From: Candidatus Eiseniibacteriota bacterium
GTDB lineage: Bacteria; Eisenbacteria; RBG-16-71-46; JABDJR01
NCBI GenBank assembly: GCA_963783375.1
Contig: CAWANH010000028.1
Coordinates: 160,001 to 224,000 of the forward strand
Direction: 5' to 3'
Length of the DNA stretch: 64,000 nucleotides
Position 1 is the stretch's first letter. The number at the start of each line of letters is the position of its first letter. The notes beneath the pieces are model-generated. The model was given only the letters and a program-made list of their open reading frames with translations, made no database searches and had not been told where the DNA came from. The translations under genes and the position numbers were made by a program. Shown here one piece after another: positions 36,895 through 59,886 of this stretch.

Positions 36895-38589
36895 TCAACC
36901 GACTGATTCGGTCCGGTTGTCGCCCCGTGGAATCGGGCTGGCCCCCGGCGGGGGGACTCCGGTGCGATGGATTGCCGCCGCACCGACCGACGACGCCTCC
37001 CCGGGTTCGCGACGAGGCGTCCTAGGCGACGCCTCCCCGGGTTCGCGACGAGGCGTCCTAGGCGATGCTTCCCCGGGTTCGCGAAGAGGCGTTCTAGGCG
37101 ATGCTTCCCCGGGTACACGATTCGGCGATCCTGGCGATGCCTCCCCGGATTCGCGATGACGCGCCCTGGGCAGTGCTTCCCCGGGTACACATTGAGAGGG
37201 GAGCTCCGCGCACTTCCGTTCGATGTGCGCTTCCGCGCGCTCCCGCGCGCGGTCCCCCATCTCGTGGATGGCGCGGTGGCAGCTCGCGCAGAGGGTCACC
37301 AGGTTTTCCATCGTGTTCGCTCCCCCGGCCGCACGCGGTGACCGGTGGTGCACGGCGAGGAACCGCGAGCTTCCGCACCCCGCAACGCAACAACGGTGAC
37401 CATCCCGCTCCAGGACCGCCCGGCGGAGCGACGGCGGAATCGTCGCCCGGTTCCGCTTCCCGGGGCGATGAACCTGCGCATCACAGAGGACGGCTTCCAG
37501 TTCGGCGGCACGGAGGGACTTCGACCCGCGGCCCGTCACGACAGCGCCCGTGTTGCAGTCCGGGCACTGCTGAACGACGACCTGGTAGGTCCGGAGCGGC
37601 GCTCGCCAGGTCGCCTCGGGTGGGCCGGCCGGAGCTTCGTGGACGCGGATGCCGCCTGCCGCCCTGGGCTCAGGTTCGGCGGCACCGGCGTGACCGGGCC
37701 GCACCCCGGTCCGGGCGGAACATCGCGTTCCAAGGACGCCCGGCCCCCGCCTCGACCTTGCGTCTCCGCTCGTCGGCATTTTGGCGGCCGGCCCGGTTCC
37801 GGGAGTAGATGCGTTTCCAACCGTGGACGGCGTTTCATCAAAGGTGATGGGGCGTTCGCCAGCGGCCACCCGCCCCCGGCCCTGCCCGAGCAGCGCGGCG
37901 AGCCCGGCCACGACCAGGTCTTCCACGGGGCCCTTCCAGCCTTCCTTGCGGAGCCTCTCCACCAGGGCGCCATACTCCGCGTACTGGAGCGCGGGGAAGC
38001 GGAGCCGGACCTCCTCGGGCATCGCGCGAATCAGGTCGGGCACCTCGGGGCCCCGAACCACGACGCCATTGCCGGTCGGCGGGGCGTCGTTCGCCTCGGC
38101 AGGCTTGTGTCCGGGCTCCTCAGTGGCCGCCAGCGAGGTTAGAGCGAGACTCCCCTGATCCCGCCCGGGACCACGAGCCTCCCGCGCCCGCCCCCGGGCG
38201 ATCGCGATCTTCTTCTCCAGCGCGCGGCGGCTCGATCGCTTCGCTTCGCTGACCCAGGCGCGTTCGGTCTCGGGTGTGGCCACCCTCACGACCTCCCTCG
38301 CCTTGGTCCAGGGCATCTCTCCGGCGGCGAGAGATCTGTGAAGGATGGGCAGCTCGGCCAGGGACCCCGCGAGGCGGATGTAGGCGGAGCATCGGCTCCT
38401 GGAAAACCCGTGTTGTTCGGCGGTGTAGGCGTAGATCGAGGTGTAGCCGAGCTCGAGGTAGAGCCTGCGGCGAAGGATGTCGGAGAACCAGAGGACGAGG
38501 TTCTTCCGCGCAGCCTCAGCTTCTGTGAGCGTATGACTGAATCGCTCGTGGGCCCGGCGCGCGGGCAGGTTCGGTTCGAATTTCGGCAT
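36895..38589 (-). CDS. HNH endonuclease (~564 aa) with a helical N-terminal region (DUF222-like architecture) and a repetitive C-terminal tail
   Basis: RATIPPSLRRAVLERDGHRCCVAGC..LAVHH..GGANTMENLVTLCASCHRAIH. N-terminus LYLELGYTSIYAY..LAELP..LAAGEMPWTKAREVVRVATPETERAW; a CPDC knuckle precedes the HNH domain. Confidence 0.88.
   Translation of the reverse strand: MPKFEPNLPARRAHERFSHTLTEAEAARKNLVLWFSDILRRRLYLELGYTSIYAYTAEQHGFSRSRCSAYIRLAGSLAELPILHRSLAAGEMPWTKAREVVRVATPETERAWVSEAKRSSRRALEKKIAIARGRAREARGPGRDQGSLALTSLAATEEPGHKPAEANDAPPTGNGVVVRGPEVPDLIRAMPEEVRLRFPALQYAEYGALVERLRKEGWKGPVEDLVVAGLAALLGQGRGRVAAGERPITFDETPSTVGNASTPGTGPAAKMPTSGDARSRRGPGVLGTRCSARTGVRPGHAGAAEPEPRAAGGIRVHEAPAGPPEATWRAPLRTYQVVVQQCPDCNTGAVVTGRGSKSLRAAELEAVLCDAQVHRPGKRNRATIPPSLRRAVLERDGHRCCVAGCGSSRFLAVHHRSPRAAGGANTMENLVTLCASCHRAIHEMGDRARERAEAHIERKCAELPSQCVPGEALPRARHRESGEASPGSPNRVPGEASPRTPLREPGEASPRTPRREPGEASPRTPRREPGEASSVGAAAIHRTGVPPPGASPIPRGDNRTESVG
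36991..37190. repeat. 6 x 36-bp tandem repeat with a GC(C/T)TCCCCGG core in the HNH 3' end
   Basis: Unit starts at 36991, 37027, 37063, 37099, 37135 and 37171; encodes PGEASPRTPRRE-type 12-mers. Confidence 0.9.
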
Positions 38590-38637: not shown

Positions 38638-38666
38638 AGTATGCCTGGTAGTCATCGATATGTCAA
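38638..38666 (-). promoter_or_regulatory. sigma70 promoter of the HNH gene
   Basis: TTGACA-N17-CATACT with an upstream A/T-rich tract, inside an AT-rich patch of otherwise GC-rich DNA. Confidence 0.75.
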
Positions 38667-38722: not shown

Positions 38723-40004
38723 GTGCGTCCCCGGGGAAGCAATGTTCGCAATAAAGACCGCGCAACAAACATCCGCCGCCATTCAGCCATCGATCGACCG
38801 ACCTGGGGGATTGGACACGGCTCACGGACGCGGACCCGCGGGCGCGACGCCACCGACCCCCGTGCGTCCCCGGGGAAGCAATGTTCGCAATAGGGAATCC
38901 AATGCGGTGTGGTGGTCGGGGGGAACGAGAGGGTGGGCGCACGGCGGCTCGGACCCTGGGGCGGCCGACCGGGCCGGCCCTGCCCCCGAGCGAGGCGCGA
39001 ATCTGAAGGCGTGATGGGTGCGAAGCGGGTCCCGTCGCGCCTGAAGAGCGAGCGAAGGATCGTCCGGTGGACGATCCGAGGGAGCGCTGAGCGCCGAGAC
39101 GAGGGGGCACCGGCCCGGAGGCCGCACACGCCGACCCCCGTGCGTCCCCGGGGAAGCAATGTTCGCAATAGGGAATCCAATGCGGTGTGGTGGTCGGGGG
39201 GAACGAGAGGGTGGGCGCACGGCGGCTCGGACCCCGGGGCGGCCGACCGGGCCGGCCCTGCCCCCGAGCGAGGCGCGAATCTGAAGGCGTGATGGGTGCG
39301 AAGCGGGTCCCGTCGCGCCTGAAGAGCGAGCGAAGGATCGTCCGGTGGACGATCCGAGGGAGCGCTGAGCGCCGAGACGAGGGGGCACCGGCCCGGAGGC
39401 CACACACGCCGACCCCCGTGCGTCCCCGGGGAAGCAATGTTCGCAATAGGGAATCCAATGCGGTGTGGTGGTCGGGGGGAACGAGAGGGTGGGCGCACGG
39501 CGGCTCAGACCCCGGGGCGGCCGACCGGGCCGGCCCTGCCCCCGAGCGAGGCGCGAATCTGAAGGCGTGATGGGTGCGAAGCGGGTCCCGTCGCGCCTGA
39601 AGAGCGAGCGAAGGATCGTCCGGTGGACGATCCGAGGGAGCGCTGAGCGCCGAGACGAGGGGGCACCGGCCCGGAGGCCACACACGCCGACCCCCGTGTA
39701 TCCCCGGGGAAGCAATGTTCGCGATAAGGAATTTATCGCGACGTGGTGGTCGGGGGGAACGAGAGGGTGGGCGCACGGCGGCTCGGACCCCGGGGCGGCC
39801 GACCGGGCCGGCCCTGCCCCCGAGCGAGGCGCGAATCTGAAGGCGTGATGGGTGCGAAGCGGGTCCCGTCGCGCCTGAAGAGCGAGCGAAGGATCGTCCG
39901 GTGGACGATCCGAGGGAGCGCTGAGCGCCGAGACGAGGGGGCACCGGCCCGGAGGCCACACACGCCGACCCCCGTGTATCCCCGGGGAAGCAATGTTCGC
40001 AATA
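38723..40004. repeat. Array of 4 near-identical 278-bp units carrying 6 copies of a 31-bp motif GTG(CG/TA)TCCCCGGGGAAGCAATGTTCGC(A/G)ATA
   Basis: Motif starts at 38723, 38862, 39140, 39418, 39696 and 39974 (spacings 139, then 278 x4). Confidence 0.95.
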
Positions 40005-40165
40005 AAGACTCTCGCGGGGGTATCAAGACACGGTGATCGTGCGAGCGTGCGCCCGCCCGCACACCCCCAACGCGAACGGGCGGCCCGCCCAGGAGCCGCC
40101 CGCATCGCTTGTTCCGTCGGGTCACGTCGGAGGCACCCGGCTCCGCCGCCGCCCCCGGCCCCTCC

Positions 40166-41060: not shown

Positions 41061-42128
41061 CTACGCCCGCTTCAATCCCCGCATCTTCTCCGAGTCCTGG
41101 ATCCGCGTCACCACGTCCACGTAGTCCACCACCCCCTGCTGGTAGAGCCCCAGGAGGTCGTCGTCCAGGAGCTTCATCCCGTCCCGGTAGTGGGTGGCGA
41201 TGGCGTTGTTGATCTGGTGGATCTTCCCTTCGCGGATCAGGTTCGAGATCGGGGAGTTCACGAACATGGTCTCGCGGGCGCAGATCCGCCCCGGGGCGTC
41301 GGTCCGCCGGAGCAGCGTCTGGGACACCACCACCTTCAGGGTCAGGGAGAGCCGGGTCCGGATCTCCGCCTGGTGCTCCAGGGGGAACACGTCGATGATC
41401 CGGTTGATGGTCTTGGCCGCCGACTGGGTGGACAGGGTGGAAACCACGATGTTTCCGGTCTCCGCCGCGGTCAGCGCCACCTCCATGGTCTCGCGGTCCC
41501 GCATCTCCCCCACGAAGATGATGTGGGGCATCTGCCGGAGCGCCGCCTTGAGCCCCCGCACGTATCCCTTGGTGTCGAACCCGATCTCGCGCTGGTCGAT
41601 CAGGCACGTCTTGTTCTTGAACATGAACTCGATCGGGTCCTCGATGGTGATGACGTGCTTGGGGACCCCGTGCTCCGCGTTCAGGTACTCGATGTACGAG
41701 GCGATGGTGGTGGACTTCCCCGCCCCGGTGGGGCCGGTGATGAGGATGAGCCCGTTGGGCTTGTTCACCATCTCCATGAGCGTCCGGTCCGAGAGCCCGA
41801 TGGACCGGTAGTCCGGAATCTCCAGGGGCACCAGCCGGAGCACCGCGGCCACCGTCCCCCTCTGCTGGTAGACGCTCACCCGGTAGCGGGCCAGGTTGGG
41901 AACGTGGTAGCCCACGTCCAGCTCGCGCTCGTTCTCGAAGATCCGGCGCTGGTCCATGGTGAGGAACTGGTAGACGAGTTCCTGGGACTCCGTCCCGCTC
42001 AGGACCCACTCCGGATCGAGGGGCTCCAGGGCCCCGTGTACGTGGTACGTGATGGGCGCCCCGGCGGAGATGATGACGTCGCTGGCCTGGCGGTCTACCG
42101 ATTCGCGGAGGATCTCCATCACGTCCAT
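41061..42128 (-). CDS. pilT: Type IV pilus retraction ATPase PilT/PilU
   Basis: MDVMEILRES..ASDV; GPTGAGKSTT, ITIEDPIE, VGEMRD, AAETG, ISNLIRE. Confidence 0.85.
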   Translation of the reverse strand: MDVMEILRESVDRQASDVIISAGAPITYHVHGALEPLDPEWVLSGTESQELVYQFLTMDQRRIFENERELDVGYHVPNLARYRVSVYQQRGTVAAVLRLVPLEIPDYRSIGLSDRTLMEMVNKPNGLILITGPTGAGKSTTIASYIEYLNAEHGVPKHVITIEDPIEFMFKNKTCLIDQREIGFDTKGYVRGLKAALRQMPHIIFVGEMRDRETMEVALTAAETGNIVVSTLSTQSAAKTINRIIDVFPLEHQAEIRTRLSLTLKVVVSQTLLRRTDAPGRICARETMFVNSPISNLIREGKIHQINNAIATHYRDGMKLLDDDLLGLYQQGVVDYVDVVTRIQDSEKMRGLKRA

Positions 42129-42133
42129 GGCGA

Positions 42134-43415
42134 TTACCCCTGGTCCTTGATGAGGGTCGGCGTGATCTCGATCACGAGATCGGTCTGGCTGGTCTCGATC
42201 CGGTAGTGCCGGAAGAGATACCCCAGGAGCGGAATGTCGCCCAGGAGCGGGACCTTCTTCACCGTCTCCTTGCTCTCCTCCTGGAGGAGCCCGCCCAGGT
42301 AGAACTTCTGCCCGTCCTGGACCCGCACCACCGAGGTGGCCCGGCGGGTGGAGGTCTCGGGAAGGTCGTTGTCGGGCCCCACGAAGGCGATGATCGTGCT
42401 CACCTCGGGGCTCACCTGGGTGGTGATGAACCCGTCGTCGGAGATCCGGGGGACGATGTTGAGCTTCACCCCCACCTCGACCTTCTCGAGCTGGACGGTC
42501 TGGAAGGCGCCCCCCTGGACCCCGGCCGAGGAGAGGCTGGTGATCACCACCGGCACGGTCTGGCCGATGAAGATCTCCGCCGGCTGGTTGTTCATGGTGG
42601 TGATCTTGGAGTTGGCCAGGAGCTTGGCCTTCCCGTCGGTGATCAGGGCGTCGAGGGTCACCTCGAAGGACTCCACCTGGCGGTAGATGTCGCCGGTCTG
42701 GTCGTACTTGATGAAGGGGAGCTTGCTCGGGACTGGCGTCGTTCTGGGAATCGCCGGGGTTGGTCTCGGTGATCACCTGGGTCCACTTGGTGATCTTCTC
42801 CCAGTCGATCCCCAGCTCCTTCAGGTCGGTGGTGTTCACCTCCACCAGCCGGGCCTCGAACATGACCTGCTCGGGCCGCTCGTCGAGGTCCTGGACGATC
42901 CCGTCCACCTCCTCGATCACCGACTGCGGCGCCTTCACGATCACCCGGTTCCCGGAGACGTAGGCCCGGGCCTCCTTGGAGATCACCTCCAGGGCCTTCA
43001 CCACCTCGTCGGCGTTGGCGTACTGGAGGTCGTAGATCTTGGTGGTGAGTCCGGTCTGCTGGGCGAGACGCTGGGGGTCGGCCACCAGGATCGACCCGCC
43101 CACCCGCTCGTAGCCCAGGCCGGCGGCCCGGACCACCAGGTTCAGCGCCTCGCTGAACGGGGTGTCGTGGAGATGGATGCTGATGGGGCGGCCCTGCACC
43201 TCGGGGGCGGTCACGATGTTGAGACCGCTCCGGTCGGCCAGCACCCGGAGCACCGACACCACCGGGGTGCTGTCCGCGTCGAGGCTGATCAACTGCTGGT
43301 CGCTCATGGCCGCGGTCCCCGGCTGGGCCGGAGCCGGGCCCGGGGTCACCGCAAACGCGACGAGGACCAACCCGAGAACCAGGCATGCCCTCCAGATTCC
43401 TGGTTTCAACGCCAT
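42134..43415 (-). CDS. pilQ: Secretin (PilQ/GspD family), frameshifted near 42740
   Basis: N-terminal part has the STN/N domains and QVMFEARLVEV..LGIDW. A different frame holds the C-terminal secretin domain (GKAKLLANSKITTMNNQPA..KVPLLGDIPLLGYLF..LVIEITP). Confidence 0.8.
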
Positions 43416-43428
43416 CACGTGTGTCTCC

Positions 43429-43905
43429 TCACATGGTAAGGGTGAAATTCTCTCCGTCCTTGGTCACCGTCACGGCGCCGCTTCGGATGGAGACCACGGT
43501 CCATCCCTTGAACGATTCCCCGATGTGGAGGTCGCCCGAGCGCTGACCCTCCACCAGGATGCGTACGGTCGGGTTCACCTGATCGACCAGGATCATGCTC
43601 ACCCTGGGGGCCACGAGCGGGGGCGGCTCCACCGGTCCCCGATGCCGGGGCGCGGGAGGCGCGGGAGGCCAGTGCATGGGATCCCGGCCCGGATCGGGCT
43701 CGGCGGCGACGGCCGCGTCCCGGTCCAGCGCGGACTGGACGAGCGGGGCCTCCCCCGGAGCCGCCATCGTCCGGCTGGTCTCGACGGGCGACAGCACGAG
43801 CCGGGCCGCGGTCCAGGCCCGGAAGACCAGGAAGAGCCCGGTGATGAGGAGGATCAGCACCGCGACGGTGGCCGCCCCCCGCTGGTTCCGTTTCCGGGGG
43901 CTCAC
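43429..43905 (-). CDS. PilP-like pilus assembly protein
   Basis: N-terminal TM segment, GRDPM, Pro-rich linker, IGESFKGWTVVSI..VTVTKDGENFTL; sits just before the secretin. Confidence 0.55.
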   Translation of the reverse strand: MSPRKRNQRGAATVAVLILLITGLFLVFRAWTAARLVLSPVETSRTMAAPGEAPLVQSALDRDAAVAAEPDPGRDPMHWPPAPPAPRHRGPVEPPPLVAPRVSMILVDQVNPTVRILVEGQRSGDLHIGESFKGWTVVSIRSGAVTVTKDGENFTLTM

Positions 43906-44445
43906 GGGGAGGGGTCTCCGCTCAGGCTCAGCACCGAGAGGTTGAGCTTGAGGCTCATGTAGGGGTCGGCCAGACCGGTGTCCAGGGTGAAGGAATCCAC
44001 GAGGATGAGGGGCCGAGTCTCCTCGAGAGCCCTCAGGAACCGGATCTGACGATCGAAATTGCCGTAGACGCCCATGAAATAGGTGGTCCTCGTGAATGGC
44101 GTTCCTGGGAGCCCGATTTTGCATGCTCAGATCCAACAGACTCAGCCTGGCCGACTTCCGGAGGCGCTCCAGGGTGGCCAACGGCTCGGTGTGCCGGTAG
44201 GCCGCCCGCCAGTCCCCGTCCGCGGGAACGCCCTCGTTCACGTAGTCGAGAACCTCCCGGGCCTGGGCTTCCTGATTTCGGGCCGCACGCAGGCTCTTCT
44301 CCGCCGCCTCGCGACGGCCGGCCAGCCGGTCCAGATCTCCCTGGGCGGGCTGGAGCCAGAACAGGTCCACCCCCAGCGCCACCACCAGGAGCCCCAGGGC
44401 CAGGGCCAGCTCGCCGCGGGCGCCTCCCCGCTTCCGGGGGCTCAC
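43902..44445 (-). CDS. PilO-like protein, frameshifted near 44105
   Basis: TM segment plus coiled coil, then GNFDRQIRFLRALEETRPLILVDSFTL in a shifted frame. Confidence 0.6.
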
Positions 44446-45019
44446 TGGCTCCCCCCTGCTTCGGCTCGGCCGCCCGGACGATCACGTGAAAGCTCTGATC
44501 CGACTGGCTCGGGGCGGTGCCCAGGTCCACCTGGGGGAACCGGGCGGTGACCGCCGAACTCTCCCGAAGCGCCTGCATGAACCCCAGGACCGGGGTGAGA
44601 TCGGTCCCCCCGCCACTGATCCGCCCTGCCAGGTTCAACCCGTTCAAGCCGCTCTGTAGCCCCCCGACGCCGGCCTCGATCCTGGTCAGGATCAGGCTCC
44701 GGGGAAGCGCTCCCGAGACCGCCAGGAGCACCCCGGACCAATCCACCCGGGCCACCCGGGCCTGGACCAGGCTCCGGGCCAGGGCCACGTCCGCGGTTTC
44801 CGGCGCCGGCCGGGCCGCCGCCTCCACCTCCTCCACCGCCCGGGTCTCGTTCCGGACCCGTTCCCGAAGCTGGAAACCGGACACGATCAGAAAGCCGATG
44901 AGGAGGACCTCGACCCCCGCGATCACCCCGAACAGGGCCCCGCGGAGAAGGTCCCGGCGGAGACTCCCCGCCCGTTCCTCCCGCTCCGGATACAGGTTGA
45001 CGCGATACCTCACCCGCAC
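44442..45019 (-). CDS. PilN-like protein (probable indel near the 3' end)
   Basis: RVNLYP motif, TM segment, RVDWSGVLLAVSGALPRSLILTRI. Confidence 0.7.
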
Positions 45020-45020
45020 C

Positions 45021-46071
45021 TCACCACCGCGCCAGGCCCACCGCGCTCACCAGACGCACCCGCTCGGTGGGCGCCAGGGGGCCATCCCCGGCCGTCTGGA
45101 GATCCCCGAGCGGGTCCACGGGCACGGCCTCGATTCCCAGGGCGGAGGCGATCCGCTCTCCCAGGCCGCTGATCAGGCTGCCCCCGCCGCACAGGTAGAT
45201 CTTCGAGACCGTGTTGATCCGCTGGCGAAGGCTCAGGAACCGGACGGTCTCCTCGATCTCCCGGATGAGCCCGGCCAGCGATTCCTCCAGCACGGACTGG
45301 ATCTGCCGCCCTTCCTCTCCCTTCAGTTCGGTGAGCATCTGCTCGGCCGTGGTCCGGTCGAAGCTCAGCTCCTTCTCGATCCGCGCGGTCAGGACGTTGC
45401 AGGTGCACTCCAGGTTCCGGACGTAGAGTCCGCGCACCGGGTGCACCGCGGCCAGAACGCTGTTGACCGCCCCGAGATCCAGGACCACCACCGCCGCATC
45501 CGCCTCGGGATCCGGAGGATACGCCTCCAGGACCGCGTTCACCGCGGGGAGCGGATCGGCCTCCACCGCCCCCGGGTCGATCCCCACCGCGTCCAGAATC
45601 TTGAGCGCCCGGTCCCGCCGGGCCCGGGGGGCGGCAACCAGGAGCACTTCCTGACCGCCCGCGCTTCTCCTTGTCCTTCCCGTCCGCCGGGACCGGGGAC
45701 CGGCCCAGGATCTGGAAATCCAGACAGGGATCCTGGAGGCTCTCCAGGGGAAGGTGTTTCTTGGCCTCGAACGGCAGGGCGGCCCGGAGTTCCTCGGGGC
45801 TGAGCGCGGGGAGGGACACCTGGCGCAGGTGGACGTCCCGCCCGCTCACCGAGGTCACGACCCGGCCCAGGCGCCGGGACTTGAGCCCCAGCTCCCGCAT
45901 CAGCTCGGCCAGGGCCCGCGCCCGGCCCTCCACGTTGTCCCCGCCGTTTCCGGCGACCGCCCGGAGCCCCCAGTGGGTGAGGACCGGTCCGTTCCCGTTT
46001 TGCTCCAGGCGGACCAGCTTCACCGTATGGTGCCCCAGGTCGATCCCGGTGGCTGTACGTCGCGACAGCAA
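45021..46071 (-). CDS. pilM: PilM actin-like assembly protein, frameshifted near 45660
   Basis: GIDLGHHTVKLV; VLLVAA, VVLDLGA, IYLCGGGS, AVGLA in the second frame. Confidence 0.8.
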
Positions 46072-46125
46072 GAACCCTCCTTCTTGGCTGCGCCTGAATC
46101 CGAATCGAGCCGTATCCTAACCGGT

Positions 46126-47497
46126 TTACGGGTTGGGCGCTACCTCCCGCCATTCCAGGACCACCATCTCGCCGGTGGTCCCGTCCTGCTTGTACCAGTC
46201 GGGTCCGAAGGGGAGCTTCGCGACGAAACCGTCGTTGTAGTCAAGGGTCGGACCGCCGCGGGTCGTGAGATCCCGGAGGACGATCAGGGCCCCGGTCAGG
46301 GAGAAGTTCCCGTTGATGAGTGGCACGTCCCGGGTCACGTAGAGAAGTGCCGGATTGGCCGCGGTCCCGACGGTGACCTGGGCGGCGTTTTGGTCGAAGT
46401 CGTGGACCACCAGGGCCAGGCCGTTGTCCGGTTCGAAGGTGGCCTTGGTCTTGCAGCCGGAGCGTCCCCCCCGGCCACTTCGTCCAGTTGAGGCGATCAT
46501 CGTCGGTCGCCCCGAAGAAGCGGGTGTTGATGATGGTCGTCTTGATCGACTGACCTCCGGTCATCTGGATCTGGATGTCGGCGATACTGGCCGGGAGGCT
46601 GGCGATGATCGCCCCAAAGTTCACCACCACCGAGGTGTTCCCGGCGACGGTGTCGAGCTTGAACACCCCGTTCACCGGATCGAAGTAGTGGGCCACGTCG
46701 CCGCCCTTGAAGTCGTAGCTGAACACGCGCCGCCCCCGGACGACGATGACGCAGGTCATGGAGTCACCAGGGACGGATTGGATCTCGACGCCGCGTTCCG
46801 GTCGAAGATCTTCGCGTGAAGCGGAGTCCCCGGGCTTCATGAGGCTGTTCCCGACCACGTAGTAGTAGGTCGAGTTGGGGTAGTGGCCGGGCTCGGTGTA
46901 AATCTTGGGGGGATCGAGATGGAATCCCTCGGTGTAGGTTCCACCGCAGTCCAGGTGAACGTCGTTCTTTCCGAAGTCCGCGTCGCCGTTGGCGTGGATG
47001 TGACCGTCAAGGCAGATGTTGCCCTTGGCGTCGATATCGTTCATGACGATCATCTCTTCATTGATGCCGAAGTTGGGCACGGTCACCCAGGTATCGATGG
47101 CCCGCTTCGCGTTCCGGACCGTGCCCTCGGAGTGGACCTTCAGGATGTCCAGCGGAATGCCCTTGATCGTGTAGGTCGGGCTTCCGTTCCAGGTGGCGTC
47201 GGTGACGGTCACCGAATAGACGCCGTTCCCCTCGGCAACATCGGTGAGGGGACCGCGCCAGGCCAGGTCCTTGGCGAACTCGGCCCGCGCCCGCTCCACC
47301 CCGCCGTCGGCCAGGTAGAACGCCTCGGAGGAGTTCTGGCGGTAGAGCGCCCCATGGGTCTCGTAGCCGGCCACCGCGAAGTAGGCAAGACCGACGATGG
47401 TGACGATGAAGATGAAGACGGTGACGGTGAAGAGCGCCAGCCCGCGCTGGTCGCCCAGCCGCCCGAAGTTCCCTAGTGTCATCCGGGTCTTCCTCAT
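46126..47497 (-). CDS. PilX-like minor pilin with a large C-terminal domain (indels, including near 46450)
   Basis: DQRG|LALFTV.. leader, AFYLADGGVERA, C-terminal VVLEWREV. Confidence 0.7.
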
Positions 47498-47527
47498 ATC
47501 GGAGTCCCCCTCGCTTTGAATCCGGCC

Positions 47528-48035
47528 CTACGGGGCGCCGGTGGAATCAACGATCACGTATCGGCGATTGCGGATCGAGGCCTTGCTCTCGACCTTCACC
47601 TTGTCGAATCCCTTGCTCTGGAGTTCCAGGACGATGTTCACGGTGGTGGTATCGGCGTTGATGGTCGAAGGTGAGATCGGTGCAGCGGGTAGTCGGTGAG
47701 CGGGCTGCCGTTCTGGGTCGCCTTGGTCCCGGCCCCCGACCCAGTCGTAGACCGCGAACTGGGTCCCGAAGGTGTCGTAGCAGACCAGCCGGGACGGCGC
47801 GCCCGAGTTGTATCCGAGTCCACCGGGAGCGGCGGACGTCCCGGGCGATCTGCTCGACCGCCCGGGTGGCTTCTCCCTGCATGACCGACCTTGTCGTTCC
47901 CCAGGCGGAACGAGGTGTTGCTCTGGAGGACGATCACCCCCGCGGCCAGGACCACGATGATGGAGATGAAGCTCGCGATCATGAGCTCGATGGTGGTGAA
48001 ACCCGGCCGTACGACGTCCGGCGACGGAATCTCAC
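47528..48035 (-). CDS. PilW-like minor pilin (several indels; ends approximate)
   Basis: GFTTIELMIA N-methylation site; MQGEATRAVEQIARDVRRS. Confidence 0.6.
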
Positions 48036-48526
48036 AGCCGCCTCCCCACTTCCGATGGTCACGGTGACCGAGCGGGACACTTGGGGGCCGGTTGTAGTCC
48101 ACGATCGAAGTTCCAGGAAACGCTGTCACCTTGACGCCGGCCCAGGAACTCATCCACCGTCTTGTCGTAGCTCACGGTGAAAGCCGACCTTGTAGGTCCG
48201 TCCGTCCACAACCAAGGTCGTGTCGTTCGCCGGCGGTACCGTTGTCGCGCCTGGCGGCTGATCAGGTAGGCGAAGTCCCAGCGGCGCAGCTGCTCGATCC
48301 GCTCCTGGGCCACCGCGGTGGCCTTCCGGCGGTCCTCCTCGTAGTCCACCTGGATCCGGCCGCGCACGAAGAACTGCATGAGGCCGTACATGACGATGAT
48401 CACGAGGATCGCGGCCACCATGACCTCGATGAGCGAGAACCCGGACTCACCGGGTCGCGGACCCCGACGGAACCGATGATGGGCGATCGATGCGAGGTGA
48501 TCCATGGTCATATTCATCCGGTGCAA
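48032..48526 (-). CDS. PilV-like minor pilin (indels; ends approximate)
   Basis: ESGFSLIEVMVA..KATAVAQERIEQLR. Confidence 0.65.
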
Positions 48527-48564
48527 AAAGGCAGGAGGGCCGCCCGGCCCGATGCCGGGCGGCC
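48525..48564 (-). terminator. Hairpin after the major pilin gene
   Basis: GGCCGCCCGGC-N5-GCCGGGCGGCC followed by CTCCTGCCTTTTT; consistent with pilin-excess expression. Confidence 0.6.
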
Positions 48565-48574
48565 ACGCCTGACG

Positions 48575-48976
48575 TTACGGAAGCGTCCGGGTCGTGATGG
48601 TCCCAGCTTGATGGATGCTCGGCACGTCGTAGACCACCTCAGCACTGGCCATCTTGTTGGTGCCGGTAGCGGTGATGGTCAGTGCGTGTTCGACGTGTCG
48701 GTCCCGGCGACGGCGTAGGTGAAGTTCTCCGTCGCGCTCAGGTCGACGATCCCGTCGCTGGTGGTCGGTATAGACGCCCTTCTCCTGGGCGTAGGCCTTC
48801 TCGGCGGTGATGATCTCGCCGATCCGGCCGGTGGCCTCGGTCATCCGGGCGTTCTTGATGTACTTCCCGTAGATCGGGATCGCGATGGCGGCGAGGATCC
48901 CAACGATCACCACCACCACCATGAGCTCGATCATGGTGAAGCCCTTCTGGCCATTCTTCTTGCGGAAGCGGTTCAT
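48575..48976 (-). CDS. pilA: Major type IV pilin
   Basis: QKG|[24 protein letters not shown] with GGAGG RBS; the middle appears to contain compensating indels. Confidence 0.85.
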
Positions 48977-49082
48977 CTGCGCAACCTCCCTAGTTCACGG
49001 TTGTACTCTGCTTGCTGCGGTTCCCCACCCCTCCCCAGTTCGTGCCGGGCCCCCTGGCCCGCGCGTCGGAAAAATCGAGTCC

Positions 49083-50327
49083 CTAGTAGTTGTAGCCCCC
49101 CTCCATGATCGCCTGGCCCAGGTAGAAGATCGGAAGGAACATGGTGATCACCACGATCCCCACGATCACCCCCACCAGGACGATCAGGAGCGGCTCGATG
49201 AGGCTGGTGAGCCCCTGCACCGCGGCCTCGACCTGGCGATCGTAGAACTCGGACGACTTCAGGAGCATGGTGTCGAGCTGGCCGCTCTCCTCGCCGGTGG
49301 CCATGAGCTGGAGCACCATCTCCGGCATCTTCCCGGTGGAGCGGAAGGCGGGGGTGAGTTCCTCGCCCCGCGCCACCTGGTCCTTGACCTTGTCCAGGAC
49401 CCGGGTGAGGACCGCGTTTCCGGTCGCCCCCTTGGTGAGCTCCAGGGCGTCCAGGACCGGGAGCCCGCTCTGGAGCAGGATCCCCAGGGTCCGGTTCATC
49501 CGGCTGATCACCGCCTTCCGGATGATGGGGCCGAAGATCGGGGCGGTGAGGAGGAAGTTGTCCTTCACGTAGCGCCCCGACGCGGTCCGGGTCCAGAGCC
49601 AGAAGAGGAGGATCACCCCCAGGGCGATGCCGATCGAGACCAGGGCGTTGTCCCGGATCAGGTGGCTCACGTAGACCACGGCCAGGGTCGGCCCGGGGAG
49701 CTTGGTCCCGAAGTCGGCGTAGATCTGCTCGAAGGTCGGGACGATCTTCAAGAGCAGGAAGAGGCTGATGGCGACGGCGAAGACCAGGACGAAGATCGGG
49801 TAGCTCATGGCCGAGCGGACCTTGGTCTTGATCGCGTCCAGCTTCTCCAGGTAGACCGCGAGTTCCTCCAGGATCTTGTCCAGGGTCCCCGCGCCCTCCC
49901 CCGCCCGCACCATGCTGACGTAGAGCTTGTTGAAGATCCGGGGGTGCATGGCCATGGCGTCGGCCAGGCTGTTCCCCTCCTCCACCGTCTCGGCCACCTT
50001 CCCCGCGGTCTTTCCCAGGGTGCGGTTGTTCTCGTCCTTGGAGAGCCCGCGAAGGCCGCGGACCAGGGGGATGCCGGCCTCGAACAGGGTGGAGAGCTGT
50101 CGGGTGAAGAGCGCCAGATCCCGGGTCCCCACCCCGCCGATCGGCTGGCTCATCCACTCCTTCCACGCGGAGGCGCGCCCCTTGAACAGGGCGTCCTCGG
50201 CCACGTGGAGCACGATCAGCCCGCGGTGGTGGAGTTCGTCCACCACCTGGTCCACGCTGGCTCCCGAGAGGACCCCGGCCTGCTCTTCCCCGGCGTGTGT
50301 CTTGGCTACGTATGCGAAATTTGGCAT
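49083..50327 (-). CDS. pilC: PilC/GspF inner-membrane platform protein
   Basis: FTRQLSTLFEAGIPL, AGEGAGTL, AMSYP, GEESGQL, LIEPLLI. Confidence 0.92.
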   Translation of the reverse strand: MPNFAYVAKTHAGEEQAGVLSGASVDQVVDELHHRGLIVLHVAEDALFKGRASAWKEWMSQPIGGVGTRDLALFTRQLSTLFEAGIPLVRGLRGLSKDENNRTLGKTAGKVAETVEEGNSLADAMAMHPRIFNKLYVSMVRAGEGAGTLDKILEELAVYLEKLDAIKTKVRSAMSYPIFVLVFAVAISLFLLLKIVPTFEQIYADFGTKLPGPTLAVVYVSHLIRDNALVSIGIALGVILLFWLWTRTASGRYVKDNFLLTAPIFGPIIRKAVISRMNRTLGILLQSGLPVLDALELTKGATGNAVLTRVLDKVKDQVARGEELTPAFRSTGKMPEMVLQLMATGEESGQLDTMLLKSSEFYDRQVEAAVQGLTSLIEPLLIVLVGVIVGIVVITMFLPIFYLGQAIMEGGYNY

Positions 50328-50401
50328 AGCGGCTTGGGTCCTATGACCCGCTCCTCATCATGAATCGACGACCGAACCGGTCGGCTGTCGATCCGGTATC
50401 C

Positions 50402-52116
<1,715 letters not shown>

Positions 52117-59856: not shown

Positions 59857-59886
59857 TTATCGCGAACATTGCTTCCCCGGGGGCAC
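59857..59886 (-). repeat. Solo copy of the HNH-associated motif
   Basis: TTATCGCGAACATTGCTTCCCCGGGG is a 26-bp exact reverse complement of part of the motif copy at 39696. Confidence 0.85.

Follow-up and report, generated by a model that had tools for sequence, protein, structure and literature searches.

The window analysed here is a stretch of 64,000 nucleotides from a Candidatus Eiseniibacteriota bacterium (assembly GCA_963783375.1, contig CAWANH010000028.1, positions 160,001 to 224,000 of the forward strand), and the genome containing it (which we refer to as G000) is 4.73 Mb long and 97% complete. It carries a gene for an HNH nuclease, P0001, with a tandem array lying upstream of it (Table 1). 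The array occupies 38853-40004 and consists, as a preliminary description from the letters alone had reported, of four near-identical tandem units (TRF: period 278, 4.1 copies, 98% matches), each composed of a palindrome with its tail, designated P, a linker, and a foldback element, designated E. Six copies of the array motif follow one another at spacings of 139, 278, 278, 278 and 278 bp; together with a solitary copy elsewhere they make seven matches in the window, against 0.01 expected. Whatever its driver, we are confident that the array is a locally amplified, BIME-like mosaic of two dispersed repeats. A type IV pilus/secretion operon occupies 41061-52116 on the reverse strand, its secretin and pilM/N/O-like genes looking frameshift-split, possibly through assembly indels.

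Table 1. Features in and around the array (positions in the window)
Feature	Position	Strand	Remark
HNH nuclease gene P0001	36895-38589	-	564 aa; array upstream of gene
36-bp tandem repeat at the HNH 3' end	36991-37186		5.4 copies; made from P-like palindromes
P-type palindrome inside the HNH gene	37171-37191	-	in frame; 86% complementary to the array motif
Sigma-70-like promoter of the HNH gene	38638-38666	-	TTGACA-17-CATACT; similar in paralogs
P copy 0 (palindrome and tail)	38723-38758	+	left boundary of the array
Spacer of the 139-bp interval	38759-38852	+	without homology to the unit
Unit 1	38853-39130	+	P (38862-38893), tail hairpin (38885-38907), linker, E (38957-39127)
E hairpin 1, unit 1 copy	39008-39041	+	GCGAAGC loop
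E hairpin 2, unit 1 copy	39057-39077	+	GGATCGTCC-GGT-GGACGATCC
Unit 2	39131-39408	+	E at 39235-39405
Unit 3	39409-39686	+	E at 39513-39683
Unit 4	39687-39964	+	other P allele; perfect tail hairpin 39719-39741; E at 39791-39961
Terminal P copy	39965-40009	+	right boundary of the array
Solitary P copy	59862-59882	-	between convergent dinB-like and MacB/FtsX-like genes

Thirteen columns vary among the units, ten of them private to unit 4 (unit positions 13-56) and three being singletons, whilst the REP-like hairpin GGATCGTCC is perfect in all four, as first described. The most variable patch had been read as a stem in which both arms change together, and this stood in part. The tail patch of unit 4 does pair at nine of nine positions (-11.1 kcal/mol) and that of units 1-3 forms six Watson-Crick pairs and one G-U (-5.4); read directly, two pairs are altered on both sides, with two mismatches and one wobble in units 1-3. 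The difference is nevertheless best read, from sequence comparison, as two P alleles rather than as repeated compensation inside the array, because the tail hairpin is a feature of the P family (22 of 79 copies pair at seven or more of nine positions) and the right arm of unit 4 is of the family type. Similarly, the first spacing is half a unit as reported, but the interval is not a half-unit by homology, its ungapped identity to the unit past the motif being 32%. The same sequence does follow the first and last motifs, yet it does not set them apart: AATAAAG is the ordinary P-family tail, found after 14 of 43 exact motif copies, with AATAAAGAC after 4 of the 43.

The P module is dispersed through the genome. 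A looser pattern for the 18-bp palindrome and its tail gives 79 matches in 21 clusters or loci of G000, the P 21-mer gives 47, and the commonest form is the loop-less palindrome TGCTTCCCCGGGGAAGCA plus tail, beginning GTGCTT. All 79 lie outside called genes in a genome whose intergenic share is 15%, the calls being those of a simple caller (85% coding) that missed the HNH gene of the window, and convergent intergenic regions are enriched among P regions (9/21 vs. 242/2032 overall). Copies within clusters are spaced 40-278 bp apart and the other clusters are also tandem, for example at C28:19 kb, where a similar tandem of P and E has a spacing of 270/271 bp. The array itself begins and ends on P, and the earlier proposal of amplification delimited by the motif fits this pattern. 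The ortholog of the terminal P copy forms the start of contig C325 in the congener G002, and the P cluster at C28:1.545 Mb is missing in G001 and G003. The terminal GTAG/CGTC tag on a stem-loop is absent from P, CGTC occurring only within the arm of one variant. Remnants of HNH genes were not found beside the other P clusters of G000, and one weak match was found among 10 sites of G020 and G003. Both dinB-like genes seen (window 59862 and C28:1317489 of G000) have P copies just downstream.

The E module is a foldback of ~170 nt (unit positions about 105-275) with a long terminal stem, a three-way junction and two hairpins, its paired termini being present as terminal helices 1-3. A covariance model, which by construction recovers its own training copies, found 23 matches in G000, 3 in G002, 9 in G003 and none in the other 38 of the 41 genomes searched, and all three E-bearing genomes belong to the genus. 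One strand folds better than the other, and on the better strand all 16 copies folded have z-scores of -2.5 to -9.5. Across 17 copies, 87% of cells pair, G-U pairs are used and 15 of 58 pairs are altered on both sides; two-sided changes number 48 cells against 17.9 in shuffles, with slid controls far lower, although these counts are inflated because the tested structure was taken from the folds of these related copies themselves. RNAalifold itself recovered hairpin 2 alone from the gappy alignment. The selection on single-strand structure suggested at the outset finds support at the level of this dispersed family and not within the array.

P and E occur together in 10 intergenic regions (p about 1e-12 among large regions), whilst 8 of 18 E regions lack P. 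Regions adjacent to HNH genes carry P in two of eight cases and E in two of eight (p 0.002-0.005), and in G003 E-like matches abut two HNH genes. At C28:105.9 kb a related element, uninterrupted in G002, has an E copy where its interior would be (a single orthologous site, and not an empty one), and the modules therefore recombine. Neither a target duplication nor a cognate transposase was found for E, and we take E to be a passenger that folds in single-stranded DNA and recombines with P. Pattern scans of GTDB yielded first no loci and then four, two of them chance matches in coding DNA, and scans of metagenomes yielded 14, of which only L102 and L108 (one sequence) are genuine E. Six metagenome contigs (L101, L104, L105, L107, L113, L114) carry a conserved perfect hairpin between Flp-pilin-like and CpaB-like genes, which is unrelated to E except for its loop.

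Beyond the first description of the array, both modules are thus genome-wide and the adjacent HNH gene is a candidate partner. P0001 has a predicted ParB/Noc-like helical N-terminal domain, a disordered linker, a Cys-rich zinc region, the HNH domain and a repeat-derived tail; there are five copies of the gene in G000 and many in relatives, and the catalytic His/Asn and the Cys residues vary little, if at all, among 80 homologs. The N-terminal domain is modelled at pLDDT 95, its helical part beginning at residue 10, and the top 15 Foldseek matches listed (ranks 1-18) are all ParB, Spo0J, Noc or KorB, matches that are weak (E above 0.2), as is, by the scale of the tool, the structural alignment to the ParB family (Z 6.6, rmsd 3.3, 91 aligned). 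HTH_ParB matches 8 of the 80 homologs, and a profile comparison (HHalign) with the host ParB was not significant (probability 0.3). A homodimer of the domain is predicted, with the first helix as its interface; it scores 0.67 against 0.00 for the best control, contacts agree at 97% and pLDDT is 86, and the mark applied was attained by 20 of 30 solved pairs but by just 1 of 23 single chains. A ParB-type N-terminal CTPase domain was not found in P0001 (no Pfam match), nor does it match DUF222, to which 9 of 80 homologs show weak matches (E up to 0.01). An identity as IscB/omegaRNA (HEARO) was rejected, NF040563 scoring 48 bits against a cut-off of 175 and over the HNH part only. A tRNA search was also negative.

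The HNH gene is common to G001 and G003 at the site of the array and is therefore old there, whilst a different gene stands in its place in G004. The repeats at this orthologous site are not the same: G003 has an unrelated array of two 385-bp copies with a palindrome of its own, and G001 has other short repeats. In the orthologous intergenic region of G001 (L077:3350-3590) at least five copies of an unrelated, short GTTACATAATCG-like motif lie in the array's place. P0002, from another assembly, has 521 aa against 564 and a different C-terminal repeat tail, which suggests that the palindrome-derived tails of HNH proteins vary by strain. Longer HNH genes, with frames reaching about 870 aa, form a second subfamily at C26:15.2-17.3 kb, C28:884.9 kb and C29:18.2-20.3 kb of G000, two of its copies being weakly similar to the same N-terminal domain. 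At C28:766-770 kb (L193) lie parA-parB and three parS-like sites, likely the origin region.

Across the class, HNH genes carry palindromes centred on CCCGGG, CCGCGG or GCCGGC, positioned upstream of the promoter, after the C-terminal domain or, recurrently in many of the genes, in frame shortly before it. When at least eight of nine positions are required to pair, 25 of the 39 HNH loci have a palindrome, compared with 50 of 676 genes taken at random from G000, an enrichment to be read with criteria fixed after inspection of the loci, a control from G000 alone and related genomes that are not independent. Six related genomes show the same pairing with palindromes of their own, each scattered in 7-63 copies and found for the most part in the genome whose HNH genes carry it. 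Among 41 genomes, that of G000 has 33 copies at home, 3 in G002 and none in the 39 others; that of G004 has 63, with 6 in its congener G007 and 1 in each of three others; that of G021 has 10, with 2 in G015; and that of G038 has 19, with 1 in G008. The G013 palindrome (14 copies) also occurs in G000 (9), G001 (6) and G002 (3), and one type is thus common to four of the 41, whilst in a search of five genomes the palindromes of G003 (7 copies) and G020 (10) each have a single copy in G006. Several dispersed copies sit at HNH genes themselves (e.g. 4 of 7 in G003) and the remainder elsewhere.

Different HNH subfamilies within one genome have different palindromes, and palindrome distance correlates with HNH protein distance (r 0.58). 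Over 31 of 39 loci, eight having been dropped for want of a palindrome of at least seven pairs, the recognition helix accounted for palindrome differences no better than the remainder of the domain did (partial r -0.04, p 0.76). Recent HNH paralogs are cassettes of 1.4-2.1 kb, 77-99% identical and at different sites, and such near-identical copies at new loci indicate mobility. Their homology ends within 30 nt of a palindrome in 7 of 24 cases against 2.5 expected (p 0.008), and in 0 of 12 in G003 and G013; the test used 12 of 15 pairs, one redundant, one broken and one contig-end pair having been dropped. In some lineages, then, the palindrome is where recent HNH copies end. Enzymes of the known repeat systems were not found: G000 lacks a detectable Y1/HUH transposase, Y1_Tnp (PF01797, RAYT) has no match in G000 or in any of seven palindrome-family genomes, with the control detected in 6 of 14 genomes, and no small GIY-YIG gene lies near the P clusters of G000, where the two GIY-YIG matches are frames of 628 and 401 aa away from all clusters.

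On balance, we consider it somewhat likely that the neighbouring HNH nuclease has P as its cognate DNA site: its predicted ParB-like dimer would bind the palindrome, and the nicks or cuts made by the enzyme would seed the spread and tandem expansion of the repeats. The observations joined in this explanation are the composite unit, the dispersal of P and E, the covariation of E, the multicopy HNH gene and the genome-by-genome match of palindromes; the ParB-like fold and the homodimer are predictions, and binding, cleavage and amplification are the steps we infer. The dimeric N-terminal domain would bind the P palindrome and the HNH domain would nick or cut near it, HNH domains fused to binding domains being capable of acting as site-specific nickases in the available portion of PMC3592412. 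Repair between P copies could then copy cassettes, spread sites and shuffle modules such as E, and the P-E unit could be expanded in tandem by repair, slippage or unequal exchange between P copies; nick-initiated copying is possible too. By analogy, the array would best be understood as BIME-like and as part of a system of the REP/RAYT or Ssn/NTS kind in which an HNH protein plays the part of the enzyme. More broadly, and with our confidence falling slightly short of an even balance, we propose a third class of bacterial enzyme with its own dispersed repeat, after REP/RAYT and Ssn/NTS, in which a widespread mobile cassette encodes a ParB-like-HTH/HNH nuclease that would recognise a lineage-specific, parS-like palindrome, copy itself between sites and breed BIME-like arrays. 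No description of this HNH-palindrome pairing was found in the literature searched, mainly the main texts of openly readable articles.

Other explanations have to be weighed against this one. The array had been suggested to be a multimeric precursor of a structured non-coding RNA, and the unit does fold well on the forward strand (z -3.5) whilst E covaries with use of G-U pairs. However, neither a promoter nor a terminator was found on that strand at the array, the sole promoter found being that of the HNH gene; the genes flanking the array are both on the reverse strand, which folds poorly (z -1.4); E copies in co-directional regions are six sense and four antisense, without transcription bias; an Rfam search gave nothing at the gathering score (best E 0.66), and the unit is not kept at the orthologous site. 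The absence of a forward-strand promoter and of an orientation bias, and the unrelated repeats at the orthologous site in two congeners, argue for structure at the level of single-stranded DNA over a conserved RNA precursor, which we regard as very improbable. It is more improbable still that an assembly error produced the count of four units: four is the number as assembled, no contig from four DNA runs spans the array, and the frameshifted look of the nearby pilus genes means that the assembly probably has indel errors, yet the units carry private variants, the tandem at C28:19 kb has a similar period and the G002 assembly is interrupted precisely at the terminal motif, where a repeat would be expected to break it.

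P and E could instead be ordinary repeats of the REP/BIME or MITE kind that owe their spread to host recombination, or to a transposase since lost or not recognised as such, with HNH genes that merely collect or insert at palindromes. Tandem REP clusters with flanking DNA are known (available portions of PMC3733652 and PMC3333891), the concentration of P in convergent regions agrees with this and so does the negative recognition-helix test; set against it are the failure to find RAYT in any palindrome-rich genome, the differing palindromes of HNH subfamilies within one genome, the correlated palindrome and protein distances and the recurrence of the in-frame palindrome just before the C-terminal domain in many genes, and we judge it unlikely. 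A domesticated HNH protein, acting as a Noc-like chromosome organiser or an Ssn-like guard on incoming DNA that binds dispersed palindromes and leaves arrays as by-products, would account for the predicted ParB/Noc-like fold, the conserved catalytic residues and palindromes that resemble parS and NBS as given in the accessible part of PMC7383237. It appears improbable given that site positions are not conserved (the C28:1.545 Mb cluster), that near-identical gene copies at new loci indicate mobility and that the host has its own parAB and three parS sites.

Like REP/BIME repeats with their RAYT transposases, the elements described here are short extragenic palindromes in tandem clusters of mosaic make-up, each locus being homogeneous in itself, and, like REPtrons, they involve an enzyme gene flanked by its own repeats and models of local amplification (as far as the available portions of PMC3333891 and PMC3733652 describe both). 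They differ in that no Y1/HUH transposase was found, the partner being a multicopy HNH nuclease, and in that P is a loop-less 16-18-bp palindrome without the terminal GTAG/CGTC tag. To our knowledge, REP-like repeats in RAYT-free genomes have no known driver, and multicopy helical-domain/HNH genes, though common, are unexplained. In the Ssn systems, too, as described in the accessible portion of PMC11893778, the nuclease gene has its palindromic NTS/SRM repeat on its flanks, with copies dispersed and clustered in the same genome and differing between lineages; Ssn itself is a small, single-domain GIY-YIG enzyme cutting single-stranded DNA hairpins. The protein described here is a two-domain HNH with a predicted ParB-like dimer, and its palindrome also lies inside the coding frame. 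With ParB-parS and Noc-NBS the system has in common a helical domain predicted, on weak matches, to have a similar HTH fold, and similar 16-bp palindromic sites, the G021 site differing from consensus parS only in two central bases (accessible part of PMC7383237). Unlike ParB and Noc, the HNH protein lacks the CTPase domain, is fused to HNH and is multicopy, and the host has a separate parAB-parS locus.

Mycobacteria carry the REP13E12/DUF222-HNH family, which, like the genes described here, consists of multicopy genes joining a helical domain to HNH, and for which no cognate dispersed palindrome was found described in the literature; P0001 differs in lacking the DUF222 match. The REP13E12/DUF222-HNH repeats are named in the available part of PMC10589994. 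E resembles bacterial MITEs and ERIC-type elements in size (70-300 bp), in being non-coding and intergenic, and in its paired ends and strong structure, but it differs from them in its three-way junction, in the failure to find a target duplication or transposase and in nesting into related elements.

Alone, the array is a BIME-like minisatellite, and its value lies in exposing the pairing of gene and site. Each HNH gene names its own candidate target, which makes cognate and non-cognate pairs directly testable. If the pairing is true, one class of orphan palindromic repeats would have its explanation and the large multicopy family of DUF222-like HNH genes its function, and there would be a natural library of rare-cutting or nicking enzymes specific for 16-18 bp, with the site written in each gene. 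Apart from P, the 12-bp palindrome CCGAGGCCTCGG has 228 copies in G000, five times as many as the next 12-mer palindrome, 187 of them within called genes; it may belong to the highly iterated palindromes or serve as the site of a methyltransferase.
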